From positions 103,466 through 155,293 of the forward strand of contig MFJV01000001.1 of NCBI GenBank assembly GCA_001780985.1: a stretch of 51,828 bases of DNA, written 5' to 3'. The translations under genes were made by a program, and so were the position numbers. The DNA comes from Candidatus Gottesmanbacteria bacterium RIFCSPLOWO2_01_FULL_43_11b. Its GTDB lineage: Bacteria; Patescibacteriota; Microgenomatia; UBA10105; UBA927. The notes below the pieces were generated by a model. That model had not been told where the DNA came from. It did not search any database and saw nothing but the letters and a program-made list of their open reading frames with translations. Position 1 is the stretch's first letter. Each line of letters starts with the position of its first letter. Below are positions 17,802 through 41,062 of this stretch, in pieces.

Positions 17802-18269
17802 ATGACGTCCACTGCGCATGCACTTGTAGCCGGCGCACTAGCCGCAAAATTTTCTGATCCTGTCACCGCCGGAACCCTTGCGCTCGTTTCTCACTACCTT
17901 ATGGATAGTGTCCCCCACTGGGATTTCGGAACGAACTGGAGATCCCGGCCAAAAGAAAAAACTGCAATTTTTGCAATTGTTGAAACTATTTTTGGGATTG
18001 CAATAGCCTACTATTTCTTCCGGAATATTCCGGTAGTACATCTGACCACAACAATTGCTGCAAGTCTTCTTCCTGATTGGCTTGAAACTCCCTGGTATAT
18101 CTTTTTTGCCCACCAAAAGAAGCACGAACCAGGACCAAGAGCAAACATATGGGAAAAATTAGCGTATCGAATTTATAAAATTCAAAACCTCTTCCACGCA
18201 AAAGCACAGCTGCCAATAGGGATTATTACTCAGGTAATTACCGTGTGGTTTTTCCTCTTCGTACTCTAA
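17802..18269 (+). CDS. Small membrane protein, possibly YdjM/DUF457-like metal-dependent hydrolase
   Basis: 155 aa. AHALVAGALAA...SHYLMDSVPHWD, several TM segments. TACAAT lies 8 nt upstream of the ATG. Confidence 0.45.
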   Translation: MTSTAHALVAGALAAKFSDPVTAGTLALVSHYLMDSVPHWDFGTNWRSRPKEKTAIFAIVETIFGIAIAYYFFRNIPVVHLTTTIAASLLPDWLETPWYIFFAHQKKHEPGPRANIWEKLAYRIYKIQNLFHAKAQLPIGIITQVITVWFFLFVL

Positions 18270-19206
18270 TAAGACCGGAGCATGGAGTGATTTTTATTCC
18301 TCTATTCTCAAGCGCATCCAGAAGTAAGTTCATTCCCAAACTATCAGAACTCATGTGGCCGGCGATGACGAGGTTAATATGATATTTCATCGCTGCTTTA
18401 CGATGTTCTTCCCCGGCATGCATAGCGAGTACTGTTCCAACTCCTGCAATCGCAAGTTTCTCATATACGATGTGTGATGACTCTGTTCCTCCCGTAAATT
18501 CAATCGGCGCAATTTTTCCTGCCCGGTTTCTTGGATCTCCGGCAAAAATGACCGGCCCAGCTTTCCCTTTCATTGCCTCTTTATACTCTGGTTCTCGTTT
18601 GAGAATATTCACTACATCCCCTACTGTTTCCGCTTTATTCTTTTGGAACAACTTCACTATGTAGTCATAAACGAGATTATCGGTAATTGTGTGGGTACAC
18701 ATAAACGCAAATCCCAAAAGCCGAGCGGCGTCAACTGCCTGGCCGTGATTTCTGGGACTAATACGACGGGACACTTCAGAAATCCTCTCACGCATAACAC
18801 CCTCTGCGACATTTATCGGCACGCCATACTGAGCAAGAACATCAGCCTGAACATCCATAACTTCGTGGAGTGCTGCATATGGGGCGCCGGATGGGTGGTG
18901 GGTAAGAATTAAATCAATGCTTCGTCCTTTTTCATTGAGACGATCGGCAAGAAGAACTTCTGCTGAAGATATATCTATACCAGCCAAAATTGAGTCTACT
19001 TCTTTGTCAGGATTTCCTAAGAGAATCCTAGAGTCTGTGTAGGGGTTATTGAGATCCTCCAAATCAAACTCGTCTTTCCTCGACTTTGGCAAATCCTCGT
19101 ACTCTATTTTTCTTCGTGCAAGGAGTTTTTTAACTCCCTCCGGTCCTCTGGGATCGGCATCAATTGCCATTTTTACTGCCAATTTATATATATCTCCAAG
19201 TTTCAT
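18238..19206 (-). CDS. NIF3 (DUF34)-like dinuclear-metal protein
   Basis: LILTHHPSG and VIAGHMSSDSLGMN motifs. Start moved to ATG 19206 because the track start (19254) runs into the tRNA. Confidence 0.55.
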   Translation of the reverse strand: MKLGDIYKLAVKMAIDADPRGPEGVKKLLARRKIEYEDLPKSRKDEFDLEDLNNPYTDSRILLGNPDKEVDSILAGIDISSAEVLLADRLNEKGRSIDLILTHHPSGAPYAALHEVMDVQADVLAQYGVPINVAEGVMRERISEVSRRISPRNHGQAVDAARLLGFAFMCTHTITDNLVYDYIVKLFQKNKAETVGDVVNILKREPEYKEAMKGKAGPVIFAGDPRNRAGKIAPIEFTGGTESSHIVYEKLAIAGVGTVLAMHAGEEHRKAAMKYHINLVIAGHMSSDSLGMNLLLDALENRGIKITPCSGLIRVRRGKTTR

Positions 19207-19227
19207 AGGTTGAAGTATATCACAATG

Positions 19228-19313
19228 TGCCGCGGGTCGGAGTCGAACCGACATGAGCGGTGAAGCTCACAAGTTTTTGAGACTTGCCTGTCTACCAGTT
19301 TCAGCACCGCGGC
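19228..19313 (-). tRNA. tRNA-Leu (anticodon CAA), class II with long variable arm; CCA not encoded
   Basis: Folded by hand. Acceptor GCCGCGG/CCGCGGC plus discriminator A. D arm CTG-AAACTGGTAGA-CAG. Anticodon stem CAAGT/ACTTG with loop CTCAAAA. Variable arm GAGC-ttcacc-GCTC. T arm GTCGG-TTCGACT-CCGAC. Confidence 0.9.
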
Positions 19314-33739: not shown

Positions 33740-34279
33740 ATGCCAAAAAAAGAGGCTATCCAATTACCATCTAAATTGGGCAATATTGCACCAAGCCCTG
33801 AACTTAGAATAAGCTTAGAAGGTGCAGAACGTTGTCTGGCGTTTTTTGAAAAACACCAGCTTATTGACTATCTAAAATCAATTAATTCGCATTACCTTGA
33901 AAGTAAAGGTGAAGTAAAAGGACCAATTAAGCGTATCGCTTCAGCAGTACCTGATCAAGACCAAGATATTTCACAACAATTTGGACTTGATGGATCGTGG
34001 GGTGGAATTAAGACCCTCCTCGAATGGACAAAACCCGATGAAACCATAACAAATAAAACTATATTTCTTGGTCTTTTCTATAGTCACAACACGGATTACT
34101 ATCAATTGTATTTGAGTAGTTCAATTGGTCAACGTATAACAACTGAGGAGGGTATATCACAAACCGGATCATCGTTTTTTAGAGATTTTCACTTAAATCC
34201 TCCAAGTATTCAACAAGGCGAAATTGATGATATATTAATGCAATTTACCAGTGAACTTATTCAGGCGGGAATATTATAA
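33740..34279 (+). CDS. Hypothetical protein (tandem paralogue A)
   Basis: 179 aa. Weak collinear similarity to the next ORF (see findings). Confidence 0.5.
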   Translation: MPKKEAIQLPSKLGNIAPSPELRISLEGAERCLAFFEKHQLIDYLKSINSHYLESKGEVKGPIKRIASAVPDQDQDISQQFGLDGSWGGIKTLLEWTKPDETITNKTIFLGLFYSHNTDYYQLYLSSSIGQRITTEEGISQTGSSFFRDFHLNPPSIQQGEIDDILMQFTSELIQAGIL

Positions 34280-34285
34280 TTTTGT

Positions 34286-34987
34286 ATGAATCAAGAAAAT
34301 AATCATCTTGTACCGCTTAATATAACGACAGAATTAGCTCGAAGCCCACGTGCTTCCGTACAATCCCTATTAGAATTTAATAGAAAAGCGTATGATTTTT
34401 TTGCAACCGAAAGAGTTCTAACGGCAATAAATGAAAAATTTTTTAACAGTAAGGGTACTATTGAAAAACCATATAGTTTTTATGGAATCGATTTAGAAAC
34501 GTCGCCGAAACCAAAAGGCAAAAAATCCCGATTTGACACATACCTATCTGCAACCGGAGAACTCAGATATACAAGTTTACGTGCAACATTAACCGTAAAA
34601 GGGGCAGATTTATCTGAAAAAAATAAAAAATTTGATACGCTAAAGCTTGCCATATATTATGAAATCGAATCACAAGAAAACACGTTCACAATCCAAGTTG
34701 AAGGAGAATTAGGATTCGTTGTGAATAGATGGGAACACAGAGGCGGAAACTGGGGACCTTCAACCGGTGATGTAAAATCATTTTATTTGAAAAAAACTGG
34801 TGAAGCCAGAAGTATGACTTTACCGTTAGACTCCCCACCCCAGCCTCATGAAATACTTGTTACGCTTGGGCAAAATTTTCAACAAATTCTCGAAGGATTT
34901 GCTGCACAAGGATATATCAAACTACCTGAACCACCTCCCCCTAATTCTCCAGAACAAGACTCTCAGGCGCCATTACTAGGGGAATAA
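34286..34987 (+). CDS. Hypothetical protein (tandem paralogue B, Pro-rich tail)
   Basis: 233 aa, starts 6 nt after paralogue A. Confidence 0.5.
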   Translation: MNQENNHLVPLNITTELARSPRASVQSLLEFNRKAYDFFATERVLTAINEKFFNSKGTIEKPYSFYGIDLETSPKPKGKKSRFDTYLSATGELRYTSLRATLTVKGADLSEKNKKFDTLKLAIYYEIESQENTFTIQVEGELGFVVNRWEHRGGNWGPSTGDVKSFYLKKTGEARSMTLPLDSPPQPHEILVTLGQNFQQILEGFAAQGYIKLPEPPPPNSPEQDSQAPLLGE

Positions 34988-35283
34988 ATGAAACAGCTGA
35001 TATTTTTGGCATACTGTAAGGCTTGTTCTTTGCCAACCTGAGCGTCTTTGGAAGTTCTTTTTGCTTCAACAACCGCTAGAGGTTTCCCATCCTTACCGAG
35101 TAAGAGATAGTCAACAAATTGGTGGTCAGTAAATTCAGTACGAAATTCCTCTTCAGTTGTCCCTTTCCCAAGATAAATGTCAAACTCTATGGAAACCTGT
35201 GAAGGGTCATTTATTTCCCATCCTGCTTTCCGAAGATTAAGGTCAATAATTTCTCGTCTAGTTTGCGCTTCATTTTTATCCAT
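34963..35283 (-). pseudogene. Remnant of a type I restriction enzyme R subunit / HSDR_N-type N-terminal nuclease domain
   Basis: MDKNEAQTRREIIDLNLRKAGWEI...FVDYLLLGKDGKPLAVVEAKR...GKEQALQYAKN. This is the typical first ~100 aa of HsdR-like proteins (D...EAK motif). The ORF ends after 106 aa, with no helicase part. Confidence 0.6.
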
Positions 35284-35625
35284 ATACTTATTTTTATCCT
35301 ATAAATCACGAAGTTAGCTCTTCTAATTATAGCTCATTTACGTTCGATTTACCCTGGTAAACTGCTTTTTCAGGTCAATCCAGTTAAAAGTCTATGTACT
35401 TAGAAACTTGATGAAGTGGGCTCGTACGGTAAATATACCCTTTTACTCCCTGTGTTACCCTTAGAATTCCTTGAAATCCCTGTCAGGTAAAGTTATATGG
35501 AACTATAAACAAAGGGGTAATTTACTAAACTAGCGAGTTCAGCGATTAGCCAGCTTCATTTGTTATTGATTTTCTGCTCGCGAATTATGATAAACTGAAT
35601 TAAATACCTAAATTTTAAGAGTAAC

Positions 35626-36252
35626 ATGATAGCTAAAACTTCAAATAAAACAATGCAAACGAACGATTTAATCATCCGCTCCACTTTAAAAAAGAACTTA
35701 CAGTTGCGTCATGCAAAAGATAGTAAGGTACGAATAATTGAAGAGCTGGGAGTTCAACATGGTACCGCCAGAGTCGACATTGCAGTAGTAAACGGTATCA
35801 TGCATGGATATGAAATCAAAAGCGACAGAGATACTCTTGAACGATTACCTGAGCAAATTATAGAATTCAGCGCAGTCTTCGATAAAATTACACTCGTTGT
35901 AGGTAAACAACACCTGTACAACGCAATTAACATTATTCCCGATTGGTGGGGCATTATTATTGCGAAGATTAATGAAGATAATTCCGTGGAATTCACTACA
36001 ATCCGCGAAGAAGAGTTTAATAACAACCAGCAAGGTATCTGTGTAGCAAAACTGTTATGGAAAAAGGAAGCCCTTAAAGTCCTGGAAGAAACTGGTCAAG
36101 CAAAAGGATTTTACTCTAAACCGAGACGATTTATTTACGAGAAATTAGCTCACACCCTCGATATTCAAACTCTAAACAACAAAGTCAGAGAAGCTCTATT
36201 CTTCAGGGCAAATTGGCGACTTGATGCGCCACTAATGTTAAATGGTGATTAA
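35626..36252 (+). CDS. PD-(D/E)xK nuclease-fold protein, sce7726-like / MmcB-like
   Basis: 208 aa. IIEELG...GTARVDIAVVNGIMHGYEIKSDRD gives an E-D-ExK signature. Family name recalled from memory, not searched. Confidence 0.65.
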   Translation: MIAKTSNKTMQTNDLIIRSTLKKNLQLRHAKDSKVRIIEELGVQHGTARVDIAVVNGIMHGYEIKSDRDTLERLPEQIIEFSAVFDKITLVVGKQHLYNAINIIPDWWGIIIAKINEDNSVEFTTIREEEFNNNQQGICVAKLLWKKEALKVLEETGQAKGFYSKPRRFIYEKLAHTLDIQTLNNKVREALFFRANWRLDAPLMLNGD

Positions 36253-37288
36253 TACCTGCTCTTAGCCAAGTTTCTGTGCTTCCAGTACCTTTAATGGATG
36301 GATTTCTAATATATTGTTCGAAGTGTTTCGCCTTTTCAGAAATATATTTATCACCATAGCTAAAATCTTCACCGTAAAATCTTTTGTCTTTAGCCAACAG
36401 TGCGGCACTTGCTAAATATTTATCAAACTTTTGCTTTTGACCTTTCATAATTAGCCATTCATCCTCAAAGGCATACTTTATACTTGCTGTAGGATGAAAA
36501 AACTGTGTAACTTCTTTATAAATTGGATGTTGTATCGTATAGTCAGAAAATGTTGGCTTTCTTTTCAACCCTTGACTAGAAATAAACTTTTTCCAACTTT
36601 GCCAATCTATTCGTGGTATTAGGTTCTCTTCATCCAGTTTACATTCAGATAAATCCTTGGGAAAGGAACCGCTCGCAAATATAAAGGTGCGCCAAGCTAG
36701 CAAATTCGGGATGTTTTGACTTAGTTGTAGGTACTTGGTGTACTTATCTCCGTTTTCTTCTGTTCCCTTAATATCAACAAGTAAATCGATGTCTTTTTCT
36801 TCCAGTCCAGAAACCCTGACCAAATCAGCAATTTCTCCATGGAGTTTGTCTGTATCGGAGAAATCTGAACAAATTAACCTTAAACATAAACCATTTCTGT
36901 TATCTTTTGCGAGTTTAAAAGCCGATGTTTTAATCAGCTGGTCATCACTAAGATGGATAACAGGAATAAAAACACCTCCAAGTTTGTATCCGTTTGTTGA
37001 AATCTCACTGAGGCTTTTTGCTTTGAGTGGAACAGTAAATAAAAGGCTTACATCAATAAATATCGGTCTTGTACCCCAAATATCGATAACCTTCTCAGCT
37101 AATTCTGGTAATTGCTCTTCAAATTTTTTAACCACATCATCTAGTTCTTCATATGTTTCGTATTTAGGCATTACTAGCTGTATTAGCGGAGTAATACGCT
37201 CTTTATTCTCGTCTGGTAAAAGCTTCAAAGCCCCTTGTTCTGCGCGTTTCCATTTTAATATTGGCACATAATGTCTTGAGTTAAACAT
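36203..37288 (-). CDS. Beta-protein family protein (phage T4 beta protein / sce7725-like)
   Basis: 361 aa. N-terminal HYVPILKWKRAEQGALKLL is the characteristic family start. 1-nt gap from the upstream gene. 3' end overlaps the convergent ORF by 50 nt. Confidence 0.65.
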   Translation of the reverse strand: MFNSRHYVPILKWKRAEQGALKLLPDENKERITPLIQLVMPKYETYEELDDVVKKFEEQLPELAEKVIDIWGTRPIFIDVSLLFTVPLKAKSLSEISTNGYKLGGVFIPVIHLSDDQLIKTSAFKLAKDNRNGLCLRLICSDFSDTDKLHGEIADLVRVSGLEEKDIDLLVDIKGTEENGDKYTKYLQLSQNIPNLLAWRTFIFASGSFPKDLSECKLDEENLIPRIDWQSWKKFISSQGLKRKPTFSDYTIQHPIYKEVTQFFHPTASIKYAFEDEWLIMKGQKQKFDKYLASAALLAKDKRFYGEDFSYGDKYISEKAKHFEQYIRNPSIKGTGSTETWLRAGINHHLTLVAHQVANLP

Positions 37289-37289
37289 A

Positions 37290-38513
37290 TTATCTTACCC
37301 ACCTTTCATTCGGAAAATACTTTTGCACTTTGGCTTCATTGACAATTTTATTCAAGTAAACGTATTTATTCCCTTTGTGGCGTATTTGACCTGCAATAAT
37401 AGCAATATGAACCCCTAATTCATTTGCTAGACTGCTAGCCGCCATAGATGAAGGAATTAATCTTGCAGGACTTACTTCCCACTTGGCTTTTGGTAAGAGT
37501 GCTTCCTCAGCTAAAGCATCTGCTTCAAGTTCTTTATCGCTCACATCTATTGCTTTAACATCTTCAATCTCATCAAAGAAAAGACTTATATCGCTATCAT
37601 AATGTAAGGCAATATGAGCTAATTCATGCATCAATGTAAACCAAAAATTATCCAAGCGGTCATGTCTTAGAGTTAATCCGATAACTGGATTGTCTTTGTT
37701 AGTCAAAATAGTTGCTCCGTCTAGGTATGTTTTTTGAAAGTGTGGCTCAATGATTAATATAATCCCTTGCTCTTTGAGAAATTCTTGAACTTTTAATGGG
37801 CTGTTTTCCTGAACACTAAGCTTTGCAAGCTCTTGCATAAAATTGAGGTCGATAGAACCGTGTTTATATTTTTTTGTTACGCTAATCTTCTTTACTTTTT
37901 GAAGCACTCTTGTTGCCCATGCGACAAGAGCTTTTCTGTCTGTTAAGGGAGATGAACGATAGCTTGATTTACGTGTTAAACCAATAACGTTGGCAGGAGA
38001 ACCAATTATCGAGAAGAAACTCTTAAGCTGTTCTATTTTGTCTTGTGTTTTAATAGAAATGTCTTCAAAATAACCTCTATTCTCCATTTCTGTTACAAGG
38101 CGGTTATCCCACGCTTCATACTCTGAACTTTTCACTGGTTCGTATTTTTGAATAAGAACTTCAGCTGGTATTCCAAGACCTTCTGATAAGGCTCTAACCA
38201 TTTCCAAAGTTAATTGACGTTTACCTGATAAAATTTCTGAAACTCTGCTTCTGCTTCCGATATAAGGAATAAGGTCAGTAGGTTTAAGATTGGCTTGTTC
38301 CATTCGAAACCTTATTGCTTCAATTGGGTCAGGAAATGTTTCCGGGAACAGTCTATTTTCATAGTCTTGGATAAGAGTACCAAGAAGACTAAGCCGCTCA
38401 CCCTCTTCAGAGTCAGGGTCAGGGTCTAAATTCATTAGCTTCTCCATTATTCGGAGTGCTTCTTTATAATCTAGTTCTGTTTTTATGACTTTAATTTTTC
38501 CCATTTTTATCAC
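37290..38513 (-). CDS. HigA-type XRE HTH antitoxin fused to ImmA/IrrE (COG2856) zinc metallopeptidase domain
   Basis: Residues 1-120 are collinear with E. coli HigA (YKEALRIMEKLMNLDP..., LKPTDLIPYIGSRSRVSEILSGKRQLTLEMVRALSEGLGIPAEVLI). The C-terminal half carries HEXXH (FTLMHELAHIALH). Confidence 0.85.
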   Translation of the reverse strand: MIKMGKIKVIKTELDYKEALRIMEKLMNLDPDPDSEEGERLSLLGTLIQDYENRLFPETFPDPIEAIRFRMEQANLKPTDLIPYIGSRSRVSEILSGKRQLTLEMVRALSEGLGIPAEVLIQKYEPVKSSEYEAWDNRLVTEMENRGYFEDISIKTQDKIEQLKSFFSIIGSPANVIGLTRKSSYRSSPLTDRKALVAWATRVLQKVKKISVTKKYKHGSIDLNFMQELAKLSVQENSPLKVQEFLKEQGIILIIEPHFQKTYLDGATILTNKDNPVIGLTLRHDRLDNFWFTLMHELAHIALHYDSDISLFFDEIEDVKAIDVSDKELEADALAEEALLPKAKWEVSPARLIPSSMAASSLANELGVHIAIIAGQIRHKGNKYVYLNKIVNEAKVQKYFPNERWVR

Positions 38514-38515
38514 TC

Positions 38516-38803
38516 CTAACTAATCTTCCAACTATCATATTCTTTGTGTGTGCCGATTTTCTTAATAAACACTATCTGATTTTTGTAACTTACTCGGACG
38601 AGCAACCTATATTTGTTCCCGCAAATGTCAAAAACCGTATGCTGGTTTTTTAATAGGCTTGCTTTCGGATACCGCCTCTTAAGCTCATAAGGCGTTTTCC
38701 ACTGTGCAATTTTAGCTTCAGCCTCCCACGAGTCAATTTGAGATTTGGCTTCATTATGCTTCTGCTTGAACTCGTGCAATAATTGTCTTCCAATTACCAT
38801 CAT
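38516..38803 (-). CDS. higB: HigB-family type II toxin (mRNA interferase)
   Basis: 95 aa, collinear with E. coli HigB. FDICGNKYRLLVRVSYKNQIVFIKKIGTHKEYD. Confidence 0.8.
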   Translation of the reverse strand: MMVIGRQLLHEFKQKHNEAKSQIDSWEAEAKIAQWKTPYELKRRYPKASLLKNQHTVFDICGNKYRLLVRVSYKNQIVFIKKIGTHKEYDSWKIS

Positions 38804-38836
38804 GTCTTTGTGTGGGAGAAATTACACATACTTTTG

Positions 38837-38878
38837 TTCCCATATTGGGAATATATCATAGGACAATTACTTTGTCAA
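38837..38878 (-). promoter_or_regulatory. Sigma70-type promoter TTGACA-17-TATATT with overlapping operator-like palindrome
   Basis: Minus strand: TTGACA (38873-38878), 17-nt spacer, TATATT (38850-38855). 6-3-6 inverted repeat TTCCCA-tat-TGGGAA at 38837-38851 overlaps the -10 and start region. Confidence 0.65.
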
Positions 38879-39060
38879 CAGGTGAGGTTAAAACTTGAAC
38901 TGGGGTGGTTGGGAGTGGACTATCCTGCCTAGCACATCTCTCTCGATAATAATTCTTTCTTTTCTTGGATTGGGTGGGTGGAAGCTGAAGTGGAATTGTA
39001 AATATTGGTTTTTCCGTTGATTGTGCCAATCTTTAGATTCATGAAGGAATTGTAGCATAA

Positions 39061-39069
39061 TGCTATACT
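39061..39069 (+). promoter_or_regulatory. Extended -10 box TGCTATACT, 7 nt upstream of thpR ATG
   Basis: tgctatact gtggggc ATG 39077. Confidence 0.55.
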
Positions 39070-39076
39070 GTGGGGC

Positions 39077-39607
39077 ATGAAACAGCGGATATTTGTGGCG
39101 ATCGGTATATCCGAAGATCTTAAAGCTTCAATTGCCAAGTGGCAAAAACAGAATGCAAAATTGGCAATACGATTTATCCAGCCAAAAAATCTTCACCTGA
39201 CACTCATTCCTCCATGGTACGAAGATCCGAAAAAAATAATAAAACAAATGCAGAAATTTTCTTCTTCGGTCAAACCGTTCAGTCTGAAATTTCATCTCAT
39301 CGAATCCCGGCCGCGGCTCGTTTGGATGAAAGGAAAATTTTCTCGGGAACTGGTTAGCCTCCAAAAAGAACTCACCCGATTTCTCCATGTCAAACTAGAG
39401 TCTCGGCTACTTCTCCCCCACATCACCCTCGCTCGATTTAAGAAAAACATTATCTTTGAAGAAAAAACTATCGACTGGAGCATGCACGTCAATTCATTTG
39501 TACTTATGAAATCCAGTCTTTCTCCAAATGGAGCAAATTACGAGGTGCTGGCTGAGTTTCCATCTCAAAATAATCACCATCCACTGTTATCCAATGCTTT
39601 TACGTAA
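39077..39607 (+). CDS. thpR: RNA 2',3'-cyclic phosphodiesterase (2H phosphoesterase, LigT/ThpR)
   Basis: 176 aa. Two HxT/S motifs: NLHLTLIP and LPHITLARF. Confidence 0.85.
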   Translation: MKQRIFVAIGISEDLKASIAKWQKQNAKLAIRFIQPKNLHLTLIPPWYEDPKKIIKQMQKFSSSVKPFSLKFHLIESRPRLVWMKGKFSRELVSLQKELTRFLHVKLESRLLLPHITLARFKKNIIFEEKTIDWSMHVNSFVLMKSSLSPNGANYEVLAEFPSQNNHHPLLSNAFT

Positions 39608-41062
39608 AATCGCTGCTTTTTCAATGAGATCGTGGGGATTGTTGCCCTTTCGAAACTCAGAAATTATGCGACTAACTAAGAGTTCGTGTTCTTTTTCACT
39701 GCGGGTTTGTGGTCCGAGTGATTGGCTAATAAATTTCTCGATCGTATTTCTCTCTTTATTTGAAAGAGTACTCGTTTTCGCTACATATCTTCCCGCTTTT
39801 CTTATTGCAGTCTTTATCCCAGGATAAAATTCGTGAACAATTTCTAATAATCCTTGTCTTTTTGCCTCGTCAAGTGCTGCTGCAAGACCAAAAAACTCCG
39901 GCGGTATACCTAAGGAATACCCGGCCGCTGTAAAACCAATCGCCCGGGGTAACGCGTGTTTCCCTACTTGCCGGGAATAGCCAAAAAGTCCAATGTGCTG
40001 CACTCGCTCTCTCCGACTAGGAATATACACTGCGAGTGCACTGATATTTGGCGCAACTGCATCAATTGATTTTTTATAATGGGATTCAAAAAGCTGAATC
40101 GCTCTATGAATCTCTTTAGTTTGGGATTTACTTACTCTCTTGACTTTCGTTTTATGGAGTTTTTGTTGAATGTAAGAAAGTGCTTTTTGTACAGCAGCTT
40201 TGGGGTAGTCATAGCGAAATGCTCCCTGGATAACAAGCGTGCGAATCCCGCAAAATTCATCTAAAAAATCAGCAACGGAGTCAGGCGTGAGCCCTCCCCG
40301 AAAAGGGAGAGCACCGGGAGCTGTAATAGGATAAAGCCTAACGCCCAGTGATTTTTCAAGTTCGACATAGTCTGATAATGCCTGCTTGATAGCAAGCGTG
40401 GTTGCAACGATGCCGGAGTTTAGTGCCGGGTCAGAGCGGGCTAAGAACGGACGAATATACGAAACGGGTTCATTAAATGTTTTTTTCGAAATGGCAAGAT
40501 ATTCTTTTAGTATTAACGGTGATTGAAGAATTGACTCAACACTTTCAAAAATCGGAACAACTTCAAGCGTGCTTCCGCCGTTTTTACTTGGGGAAAACGA
40601 CGAATGCGTGGCTTCTGCGATGCGCTTGAAGCTTTCGCGAAGCGAGATCATCTCTGTTGCGGTTTCCGTCATGGGAAGAATGACTTCAAAAAGCGGTCTG
40701 GCTCCAACTCCTGCTTCTTTGGCTATTTCTTCTGCTGCCAGAATCACCATAAACGCCCTCCCCAACCGATAGCCAGACTCGATCCTTGGATTTGGTACAC
40801 GAAACGTCAAAAATACGTCGCGACCTATATGATTCTTGGCAAAAAATTCCGGATATCTCGACAGCAGCCGCTCAATGACTGAATCATCAACCAACTTTCC
40901 CTCCCAATCCCACATCACCTCTTGCCCAGCTAATTGGGAAAGAAGTACAAAACATTCTTTGAGCTCGTCATGCGTTTTAATAAGAGCCCGTTTGTGCCAA
41001 AAAGGAACACTCGCGTGATCAGGATGTTGGGAAAACATGATCGAGGGAATCTTCCGTTTCAT
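39587..41062 (-). CDS. ppcA: Phosphoenolpyruvate carboxylase, archaeal type
   Basis: 491 aa. IPSIMFSQHPDHASVPFW...MWDWEGK N-terminus and overall length are typical of atPEPC, not the ~900-aa bacterial Ppc. Confidence 0.8.
   Translation of the reverse strand: MKRKIPSIMFSQHPDHASVPFWHKRALIKTHDELKECFVLLSQLAGQEVMWDWEGKLVDDSVIERLLSRYPEFFAKNHIGRDVFLTFRVPNPRIESGYRLGRAFMVILAAEEIAKEAGVGARPLFEVILPMTETATEMISLRESFKRIAEATHSSFSPSKNGGSTLEVVPIFESVESILQSPLILKEYLAISKKTFNEPVSYIRPFLARSDPALNSGIVATTLAIKQALSDYVELEKSLGVRLYPITAPGALPFRGGLTPDSVADFLDEFCGIRTLVIQGAFRYDYPKAAVQKALSYIQQKLHKTKVKRVSKSQTKEIHRAIQLFESHYKKSIDAVAPNISALAVYIPSRRERVQHIGLFGYSRQVGKHALPRAIGFTAAGYSLGIPPEFFGLAAALDEAKRQGLLEIVHEFYPGIKTAIRKAGRYVAKTSTLSNKERNTIEKFISQSLGPQTRSEKEHELLVSRIISEFRKGNNPHDLIEKAAILRKSIG

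Follow-up and report, generated by a model that had tools for sequence, protein, structure and literature searches.

A PD-λ-2-like cassette with a convergent cII-type fourth gene in "Candidatus Gottesmanbacteria" and related loci

Introduction

What kind of system is encoded by a compact group of four genes in the genome of "Candidatus Gottesmanbacteria" bacterium RIFCSPLOWO2_01_FULL_43_11b, in which a HigB-like gene, a fused repressor-protease gene, and a Beta-protein gene face a fourth gene on the opposite strand? The genes, designated here A, B, C, and D, lie at approximately 35.6–38.9 kb of the window, that is, of the whole 51,828-nt stretch of contig MFJV01000001.1 that was analysed; all coordinates below are window positions. 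A preliminary description made from the sequence alone regarded them as a defence or abortive infection (Abi) module that was uncharacterised and unnamed. We assign the group with high confidence to the PD-λ-2 family of defence systems, accompanied by a partner related to the cII protein of the satellite phage P4. A four-gene, Abi-type cassette of this family, working along the lines proposed below, is the best overall explanation of the locus and in our view a likely one. By analogy with tested relatives, the cassette also probably acts as an Abi-type defence in its own host, although we hold this with less assurance.

Two experimentally studied systems bear on the question. A functional selection yielded PD-λ-2 from Escherichia coli ECOR42 (Vassallo et al., 2022, Nat Microbiol, PMC9519451); the system comprises a HigB-like protein, a fusion of a HigA-like helix-turn-helix (HTH) domain with a peptidase, and a relative of a P4 antitoxin. 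It was shown in E. coli to protect against λvir by abortive infection; there, B is toxic when overexpressed by itself, A counteracts this toxicity, and defence requires C (PMC9519451). The second system, gop-β-cII of the satellite phage P4, has been named as a defence system and acts against λ and P1 (Rousset et al., 2022, PMC9122126) and is triggered by the phage accessory gene orf184 (bioRxiv 10.1101/2023.04.06.535777). The PD-λ-2 paper makes no mention of cII, sce7726, or gop, and the ECOR42 clone reached only 396 bp past gene C (PMC9519451). Our literature search on PD-λ-2, gop-β-cII, PF14350, sce7725, and sce7726 turned up only surveys and annotations and no recent mechanistic work.

Identification of the four genes

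The four open reading frames (ORFs) of the cassette were found in the ORF listing at the coordinates given in the preliminary description, and the HEXXH motif, the E..D..ExK signature, the 50-nt overlap, the promoter, and the palindrome were likewise located where it had placed them. Matches in Pfam, NCBIfam, and structure searches bore out its reading of A as HigB-like, of B as a HigA-ImmA/IrrE fusion, of C as a Beta protein, and of D as a PD-(D/E)xK protein. Genes A, B, and C lie on the same (minus) strand and are tightly packed, with intergenic gaps of 1–11 nt. All four ORFs are full length relative to their homologues.

Gene A (38516–38803, minus strand) encodes a 95-aa HigB-like protein of the RelE superfamily, which matched Pfam HigB_toxin (PF09907, 1.3e-28) and, over its full length, the PADLOC model PD-Lambda-2_A (4e-37). 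Its alignment with E. coli HigB (5ycl_B) includes the THKEYD segment. Residues R66, Y73, H86, Y89, and W92 are at least 97% conserved among homologues, with H86 and Y89 lying in THKEYD.

Gene B (37290–38513, minus strand; 407 aa as an ORF) combines a HigA-like Xre HTH domain with an ImmA/IrrE (M78) zinc-metallopeptidase domain and matched Pfam HTH_3 and Peptidase_M78. Residues 4–403 align with positions 1–399 of the 402 positions of PADLOC PD-Lambda-2_B (9.4e-143), and residues 10–120 align with the E. coli HigA structures 5ycl and 5ifg (3e-8). Among 78 homologues, conservation of the HEXXH motif (H296-E297-x-x-H300) is 97% or higher, and H304, E328, and D332 are conserved as well. Weak matches of the PADLOC capP and RmrA models were also recorded at the locus. 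The start of B is most likely the ATG at 38504, preceded by GGAG 8 nt upstream and giving a protein of 404 aa: homologues align from residue 4, and the gene call on a contig with an identical Beta protein (L088) likewise gives 404 aa. With this start, the gap between A and B is 11 nt and not 2 nt as first described.

Gene C (36203–37288, minus strand, 361 aa) encodes a Beta protein resembling P4 β. It matched Pfam Beta_protein (PF14350, 1.7e-60), PADLOC PD-Lambda-2_C (5e-41), and the PADLOC "beta" model of the P4 set (5.2e-10). The protein aligns end to end both with P4 β (hhalign, 307 columns, E 6e-6) and with E. coli PD-λ-2C (hhalign, E 9e-11). The Beta protein to which C is related is thus that of satellite phage P4 and not, as had been proposed, one of phage T4. 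The label sce7725 was rejected as well: neither the window Beta protein nor P4 β nor E. coli PD-λ-2C gave any NCBIfam match at E ≤ 10. Single-sequence and profile searches found no solved structures for the Beta or cII proteins. The AlphaFold2 (AF2) model of C (predicted local distance difference test score, pLDDT, 87.7; predicted template modelling score, pTM, 0.89) consists of alternating β/α elements, and its Foldseek matches are triose-phosphate isomerase (TIM) barrels, including designed barrels, triose-phosphate isomerase itself, dehydroquinase, orotidine monophosphate decarboxylase, and aldolases. When the predicted model is combined with the homologue alignment, the invariant polar residues fall at or near the strand ends; the invariant positions of C include E17, D79, R137, D172, R226, R243, D249, D313, and H348/H349. 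According to the model, C thus looks like a TIM-barrel-like enzyme or ligand-binding barrel rather than a small antitoxin of the classical kind. Sequence divergence is greater in C than in the other three proteins (mean pairwise identity 0.43 vs. 0.54–0.58), which fits a role in specificity or sensing but is no proof of it.

Gene D (35626–36252, plus strand, 208 aa) is convergent on gene C and belongs to the P4 cII/sce7726 family. The proposed resemblance to the sce7726 family was upheld by a match to NCBIfam sce7726_fam (3e-51); D also matched the PADLOC model "cll" (5.3e-27) and P4 cII itself (tblastn, 3e-7), and its homologues carry the Pfam domain PF26915 Phage_P4_cII. In the AF2 model (pLDDT 82.8), D51 is situated on strand β2 (residues 51–55) and E63-x-K65 on strand β3 (58–65), in the αβββαβ layout of a PD-(D/E)xK core. 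Residues E40, D51, E63, and K65 are at least 95% conserved in 70 homologues, and many other polar positions are conserved as well; D51, E63, and K65 count as invariant. The best Foldseek match in the PDB was 3dnx (E 4.5e-4), followed by weaker, non-significant matches (E > 0.01) to tRNA-splicing endonuclease, Hjc, and XPF; D was matched, too, by viral models named "MmcB-like DNA repair". On the basis of the model, D is predicted to have an MmcB-like PD-(D/E)xK nuclease fold, and nuclease activity itself is a prediction.

Taken together, genes A–C match all three PADLOC components of PD-Lambda-2, so that the system is neither uncharacterised nor unnamed. For these three genes, the architecture has already been named and characterised, a finding that the preliminary description had itself listed as speaking against its proposal. 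The Beta/cII pair, which had been placed outside named defence systems, belongs to P4 gop-β-cII (PMC9122126).

Conservation and distribution of related loci

A search of GTDB genomes yielded 315 relatives of B, of which the best 80 (L005–L084), with 50–75% identity to the B protein of the window, were analysed. Linkage was determined by tblastn with the four window proteins; 75 of these loci contain enough sequence, and the other five are truncated. In all 75, the four genes occur together, with A, B, and C in one direction and D convergent on them.

Judged by the titles of their records, 36 of the 80 closest cassettes come from metagenome-assembled genomes of Patescibacteria, or candidate phyla radiation, and about ten or more phyla are represented overall. 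The other hosts include Planctomycetota, Omnitrophota, Bacteroidota, Gammaproteobacteria, and Acidobacteriota, as well as Atribacterota, Dehalococcoidales, Ignavibacteriota, and Armatimonadota. Cassettes whose B proteins are 65–75% identical to that of the window occur in Planctomycetota, Omnitrophota, Atribacterota, Bacteroidota, and Gammaproteobacteria, which indicates wide transfer between phyla. The DNA similarity of the related loci to the window ends at 35582 and 38879, and no flanking genes common to these loci, such as a larger conserved island would have, were found. These limits of similarity, along with the unshared flanks, indicate that the four genes and the promoter move as one unit. 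On long contigs, the relatives adjoin genes of restriction-modification systems, AbiEii, NERD, NucS-like, and PD-(D/E)xK/AAA proteins, serine recombinases, and integrases, and these neighbours support a setting in defence or mobile islands.

The Beta/cII part of the cassette also occurs in other replicons. On plasmids, 14 of 18 Beta matches fall over an annotated sce7726 gene, and viral contigs carry both B+C and M78+C+D forms.

Regulatory sequences and the overlap of genes C and D

The predicted sigma-70-type promoter of the A-B-C operon (38850–38878, minus strand) consists of a −35 box TTGACA (38878–38873) and a −10 box TATATT (38855–38850) separated by a 17-nt spacer that includes TG. It matches the consensus at 11 of 12 positions and is the top-scoring minus-strand site within 35200–39200. 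In many related loci, TTGAC(A/T) and a −10 box recur at the same position.

The end of the −10 box is overlapped by a palindrome, TTCCCA-N3-TGGGAA (38837–38851), with the sequence TTCCCAATATGGGAA, which is the sole perfect copy in the window. Its core, xCC-N5-GGxA, is present in 71 of 77 related loci, compared with 0.6 expected from shuffled sequences, and the strict form is present in 32 of the 77. In many of the loci, the palindrome TTCCCA-N3-TGGGAA(C) recurs after the −35 and −10 boxes. This recurrence is strong evidence for a conserved operator upstream of gene A. The protein that most simply would bind it is presumed to be B, through its HigA-like HTH domain.

Gene D is preceded by a sequence of its own, TGATAAACT (35588–35596, plus strand), which is a putative extended −10 element. 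The corresponding motif, TGnTA[ATG]A[AC]T, occurs upstream of D in 41 of 74 loci, with 2.7 expected from shuffles, and may serve as the promoter element of D. A search of the window for the palindrome revealed no second operator copy upstream of D. With a putative promoter of its own and no operator copy, D would not be directly derepressed by loss of the repressor.

The 3′ ends of C and D overlap tail to tail by 50 nt (36203–36252), a dual-coding segment. Such an overlap is present in all 75 loci, with lengths of 29–101 nt; it measures exactly 50 nt in 45 of them, and all the lengths but one equal 2 modulo 3. Overlaps of β and cII genes were also observed in Rac-SA53, Gordonia phage Powerball, Mycobacterium phage Mycofy1, and an E. 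coli chromosome (L085), as well as in the plasmids inspected from Agrobacterium, Rhodococcus, and Acinetobacter. No terminator-like site was predicted at the C/D junction, and the two transcription units probably run into each other. Antisense coupling of C and D is, at this stage, a lead and no finding.

Separately, a weak terminator-like hairpin was noted near the start of D (35681–35657, minus strand). It has only 3 G-C pairs and is at chance level for the region. It is the sole minus-strand terminator-like site; if it were used, the A-B-C transcript would be antisense to all of D.

Comparison with known systems

The closest tested counterpart of genes A–C is PD-λ-2. Its three proteins recur in the window, encoded in unchanged order and orientation; each PADLOC model is matched, that of B over its full length, and C belongs to PF14350 in both. 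However, the window clade always carries the convergent cII/sce7726 gene (75/75), whereas the E. coli prototype clade is without it, and the hosts of the window clade are mostly uncultured lineages, many of them Patescibacteria. The loci of the E. coli prototype type (L087 and L094) are three-gene units whose downstream genes differ from each other and whose homology ends at the β stop codon. No cII-like protein was detected in them. In L087, a convergent 254-aa ORF was considered as a hidden cII-like gene and rejected, since it has no PADLOC or Pfam match and no profile similarity to cII.

The C/D half of the cassette also resembles gop-β-cII. On the P4 map, gop and β are followed by a convergent cII gene. 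As in the window, β (Beta_protein) is thus followed by convergent cII (sce7726/Phage_P4_cII), a toxic partner gene lies upstream of β in the same operon, and the P4 system shows Abi-like anti-phage behaviour. The differences concern both ends of the unit. The upstream module of the window consists of HigB-like and HTH-M78 proteins in place of Gop; no protein at the locus matched the PADLOC "gop" model, which P4 Gop itself matches at 4.8e-70. In addition, P4 cII is longer (264 aa) and is separated from β by a 27-nt gap with a putative terminator and without an overlap, whereas the 3′ ends of C and D in the window overlap by 50 nt and have no terminator-like site at their junction.

HigBA is a type II toxin-antitoxin pair. 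The E. coli K-12-type HigB and HigA (PDB 5ifg, 5ycl) correspond to A and to residues 10–120 of B, respectively, and share with the window a toxin gene in first place and a palindromic operator in the promoter. However, the toxic and neutralising roles appear reversed in the tested E. coli PD-λ-2 homologue (PMC9519451). The HigA-like domain of the window is, moreover, extended by approximately 280 aa with the M78 peptidase, and two further genes are obligatorily linked to the pair. In ImmA/ImmR, IrrE/DdrO, and CapP/CapH of CBASS (cyclic-oligonucleotide-based anti-phage signalling systems), a signal-activated M78 protease relieves repression by an Xre-type HTH protein. In these systems, as in the window, an M78 HEXXH metallopeptidase is paired with an Xre-type HTH domain; in the window, however, the protease and the HTH domain form one polypeptide within a toxin-antitoxin-like operon.

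Sister architectures with the same convergent, overlapping Beta/cII pair were also identified. Two E. coli chromosomes (L085, 3914–7026, and L086) carry a GNAT gene, an HTH-less M78 gene, and β with convergent sce7726, and the Agrobacterium plasmid pAt1D1460 (L090, 1246–4606) carries DUF6932, HTH-M78, and β genes with convergent sce7726. The β/sce7726 pair alone occurs in Rac-SA53, Gordonia phage Powerball, Mycobacterium phage Mycofy1, and a Rhodococcus plasmid. In the multi-gene forms, an M78 peptidase gene lies directly upstream of the pair, as in the window, but the first gene encodes a GNAT or DUF6932 protein instead of a HigB-like one; in the pair alone, there is none. The first gene of the E. 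coli GNAT loci matched no PADLOC model, and that of the Agrobacterium locus matched only DUF6932 in a Pfam scan. The GNAT- and DUF6932-headed loci may represent undescribed defence variants.

By sequence comparison, the four-gene form is a distinct, strictly conserved, and widely transferred variant of PD-λ-2. Its conserved operator, its conserved dual-coding overlap, and the predicted TIM-barrel-like structure of its Beta protein are likewise new; overall, the advance is useful but incremental. The comparison suggests that PD-λ-2 and gop-β-cII, which have been treated as separate systems, share a Beta/cII module. It is possible, although somewhat short of probable, that the convergent overlapping Beta/cII pair is the core of a defence superfamily that unites PD-λ-2, gop-β-cII, and the GNAT- and DUF6932-headed variants. 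If so, one upstream toxin and M78-protease head could stand in for another. The four-gene form, notably frequent in Patescibacteria, would represent the common and complete PD-λ-2 outside Enterobacteria, and the three-gene E. coli prototype would have arisen by reduction. The 50-nt, fixed-frame antisense overlap would then be a regulatory device coupling the expression of C and D.

In practical terms, the locus should be labelled PD-λ-2-like and not "uncharacterised", and a cII-type nuclease gene should be recognised as the obligate fourth gene in the most widespread clade. The operator, the HEXXH and D/ExK motifs, and the C/D pair offer handles on how the family senses phage, and the abundance of the cassette in the small genomes of Patescibacteria is of ecological interest.

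Proposed mechanism and alternative explanations

The following mechanism is consistent with the comparisons above, although the detailed sequence of its steps is put forward tentatively and is doubtful as a whole. In the uninfected cell, A and B would form a complex through an interface of the HigB-HigA type, bind the TTCCCA-N3-TGGGAA operator, and autorepress the operon; to judge from the E. coli homologue, A and B would hold each other inactive. The fast-evolving protein C, probably acting with D, its obligate partner, might then perceive a phage cue. Here, the requirement for C comes from the literature, and the partnership of C and D from their linkage in all 75 loci. Analogy with ImmA, IrrE, and CapP suggests that the cue would activate or redirect the M78 domain of B and that the A:B complex would be broken; the infected cell would then be arrested by a toxic activity. 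This activity could be mRNA cleavage of the HigB type, toxicity of B, or both, possibly with the nuclease of D in addition. The levels at which C and D are expressed may be linked by their convergent, overlapping transcription.

Several points weigh against this interpretation. The identity between the proteins of the window and those of the E. coli prototype type is distant (41–42% for B, 26% for A, and 21% for C), and the experimental support comes from the E. coli homologue. The prototype works without a cII-like gene; therefore, D could be regulatory rather than an effector. The TM-scores of C against its barrel matches are 0.3–0.4 (query-normalised), too low to name a particular enzymatic activity for it, and its mean pairwise identity is only moderately below that of the other three proteins. 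Finally, the trigger, the substrate of the protease, and the toxic activity are all points that we infer.

It is conceivable that the cassette serves mainly as an addiction/stabilisation or regulatory module of a mobile element, comparable with the control of integrative and conjugative element or prophage induction by ImmR/ImmA. The classical role of ImmA/IrrE proteases is regulatory, the four genes travel together among widely differing genomes and often adjoin recombinases or integrases, and the Beta/cII pair is found in prophages and satellites (P4, Rac-SA53, Powerball, and Mycofy1). We nevertheless regard this possibility as unlikely. Both tested relatives confer phage resistance (PMC9519451, λvir; PMC9122126, λ and P1), gop-β-cII is triggered by a phage gene (bioRxiv 10.1101/2023.04.06.535777), the neighbours of the cassette elsewhere are frequently defence genes, and the insertion in the window carries no integrase or element functions to regulate.

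Among defence-type explanations, that of the preliminary description was a new system without a name, in which the HigA-ImmA fusion cleaves itself and thereby both frees HigB and derepresses the nuclease and Beta effectors. Switches composed of a protease and a repressor exist (ImmA/ImmR, IrrE/DdrO, and CapP/CapH), the domain architecture and motifs are as it described them, and the conserved operator makes B a plausible autorepressor. Its general idea of a defence or Abi-type module is supported by homology to the two tested systems. The specific model, however, seems improbable to us: the system has already been named and tested, and in the prototype it is B, not A, that is toxic when overexpressed and A that rescues (PMC9519451). 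As for the nuclease, D lies outside the operon on the opposite strand and has its own promoter motif and no operator copy; it would therefore not be derepressed through the A-B-C promoter, and any extra transcription reading through from A-B-C would be antisense to it. It is very improbable, furthermore, that this copy of the cassette is a defunct relic, hitch-hiking like the HsdR fragment beside it. It does adjoin a truncated hsdR gene in an insertion without mobility genes, but its four ORFs are full length, the conserved catalytic residues are all retained, and neither the promoter nor the perfect operator nor the 50-nt overlap is disrupted. The PD-λ-2-family cassette with a cII-type partner thus remains the reading that we prefer for the locus.

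Genomic context of the insertion

The GC (guanine plus cytosine) content is 0.36–0.38 over 34–39 kb of the window, compared with mostly 0.41–0.45 in the flanks. Adjoining the cassette, an HsdR N-terminal fragment (34963–35283, minus strand, 106 aa) represents a truncated remnant of the R subunit of a type I restriction system. It matched Pfam HSDR_N (4.9e-10) and PADLOC REase_I (2.8e-17), and its NCBIfam EcoAI R match covers only residues 2–100 of 768. The fragment sits in the same insertion as the cassette and is absent from the related loci, which places it outside the conserved cassette. The low GC content and this fragment agree with the A+T-rich accessory stretch next to a decayed restriction gene that had been described at the outset. 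The cassette is intact and horizontally acquired, in an A+T-rich stretch adjoining an HsdR remnant.

The borders of the insertion are marked by a 23-nt direct repeat on the plus strand. The right copy (39077–39099) coincides with the opening 23 nt of thpR/LigT, an intact gene (39077–39607, plus strand; assigned by Pfam and NCBIfam), and the left copy (34988–35010) is a dead duplicate of the thpR 5′ end, a pseudo-start situated directly 3′ of the stop codon of the ORF at 34286–34987. The copies are identical at 21 of 23 positions, and no similarity extends past the repeat ends. The repeat brackets an insertion of approximately 4.09 kb and low GC content at the 5′ end of thpR, which comprises the HsdR fragment and the cassette. 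The ORF listing and the Pfam scan revealed no integrase or other mobile-element functions in the insertion. The 3′ end of the HsdR fragment runs into the left copy of the repeat.

The flanks contain housekeeping genes, including those for YchF, an archaeal-type phosphoenolpyruvate (PEP) carboxylase, an aminotransferase, a malic enzyme, and proteases of the S41 and HtrA types. The 3′ end of thpR/LigT overlaps the convergent PEP carboxylase gene (39587–41062, minus strand) by 21 nt (39587–39607), which is a second tail-to-tail overlap near the cassette. Just outside the repeat-bracketed insertion, two tandem plus-strand ORFs with a GC content of about 0.37 are located at 33740–34279 (179 aa) and 34286–34987 (233 aa). 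Neither matched Pfam, NCBIfam, PADLOC, or PHROGs, and their N-terminal regions of approximately 50 residues are weakly alike (E 0.003). At gathering thresholds, no Rfam family, tRNA included, was found anywhere in the window; ARAGORN, however, predicted a tRNA-Leu(CAA) at 19227–19313 (minus strand), overlapping the 5′ end of the ORF at 18238–19254.

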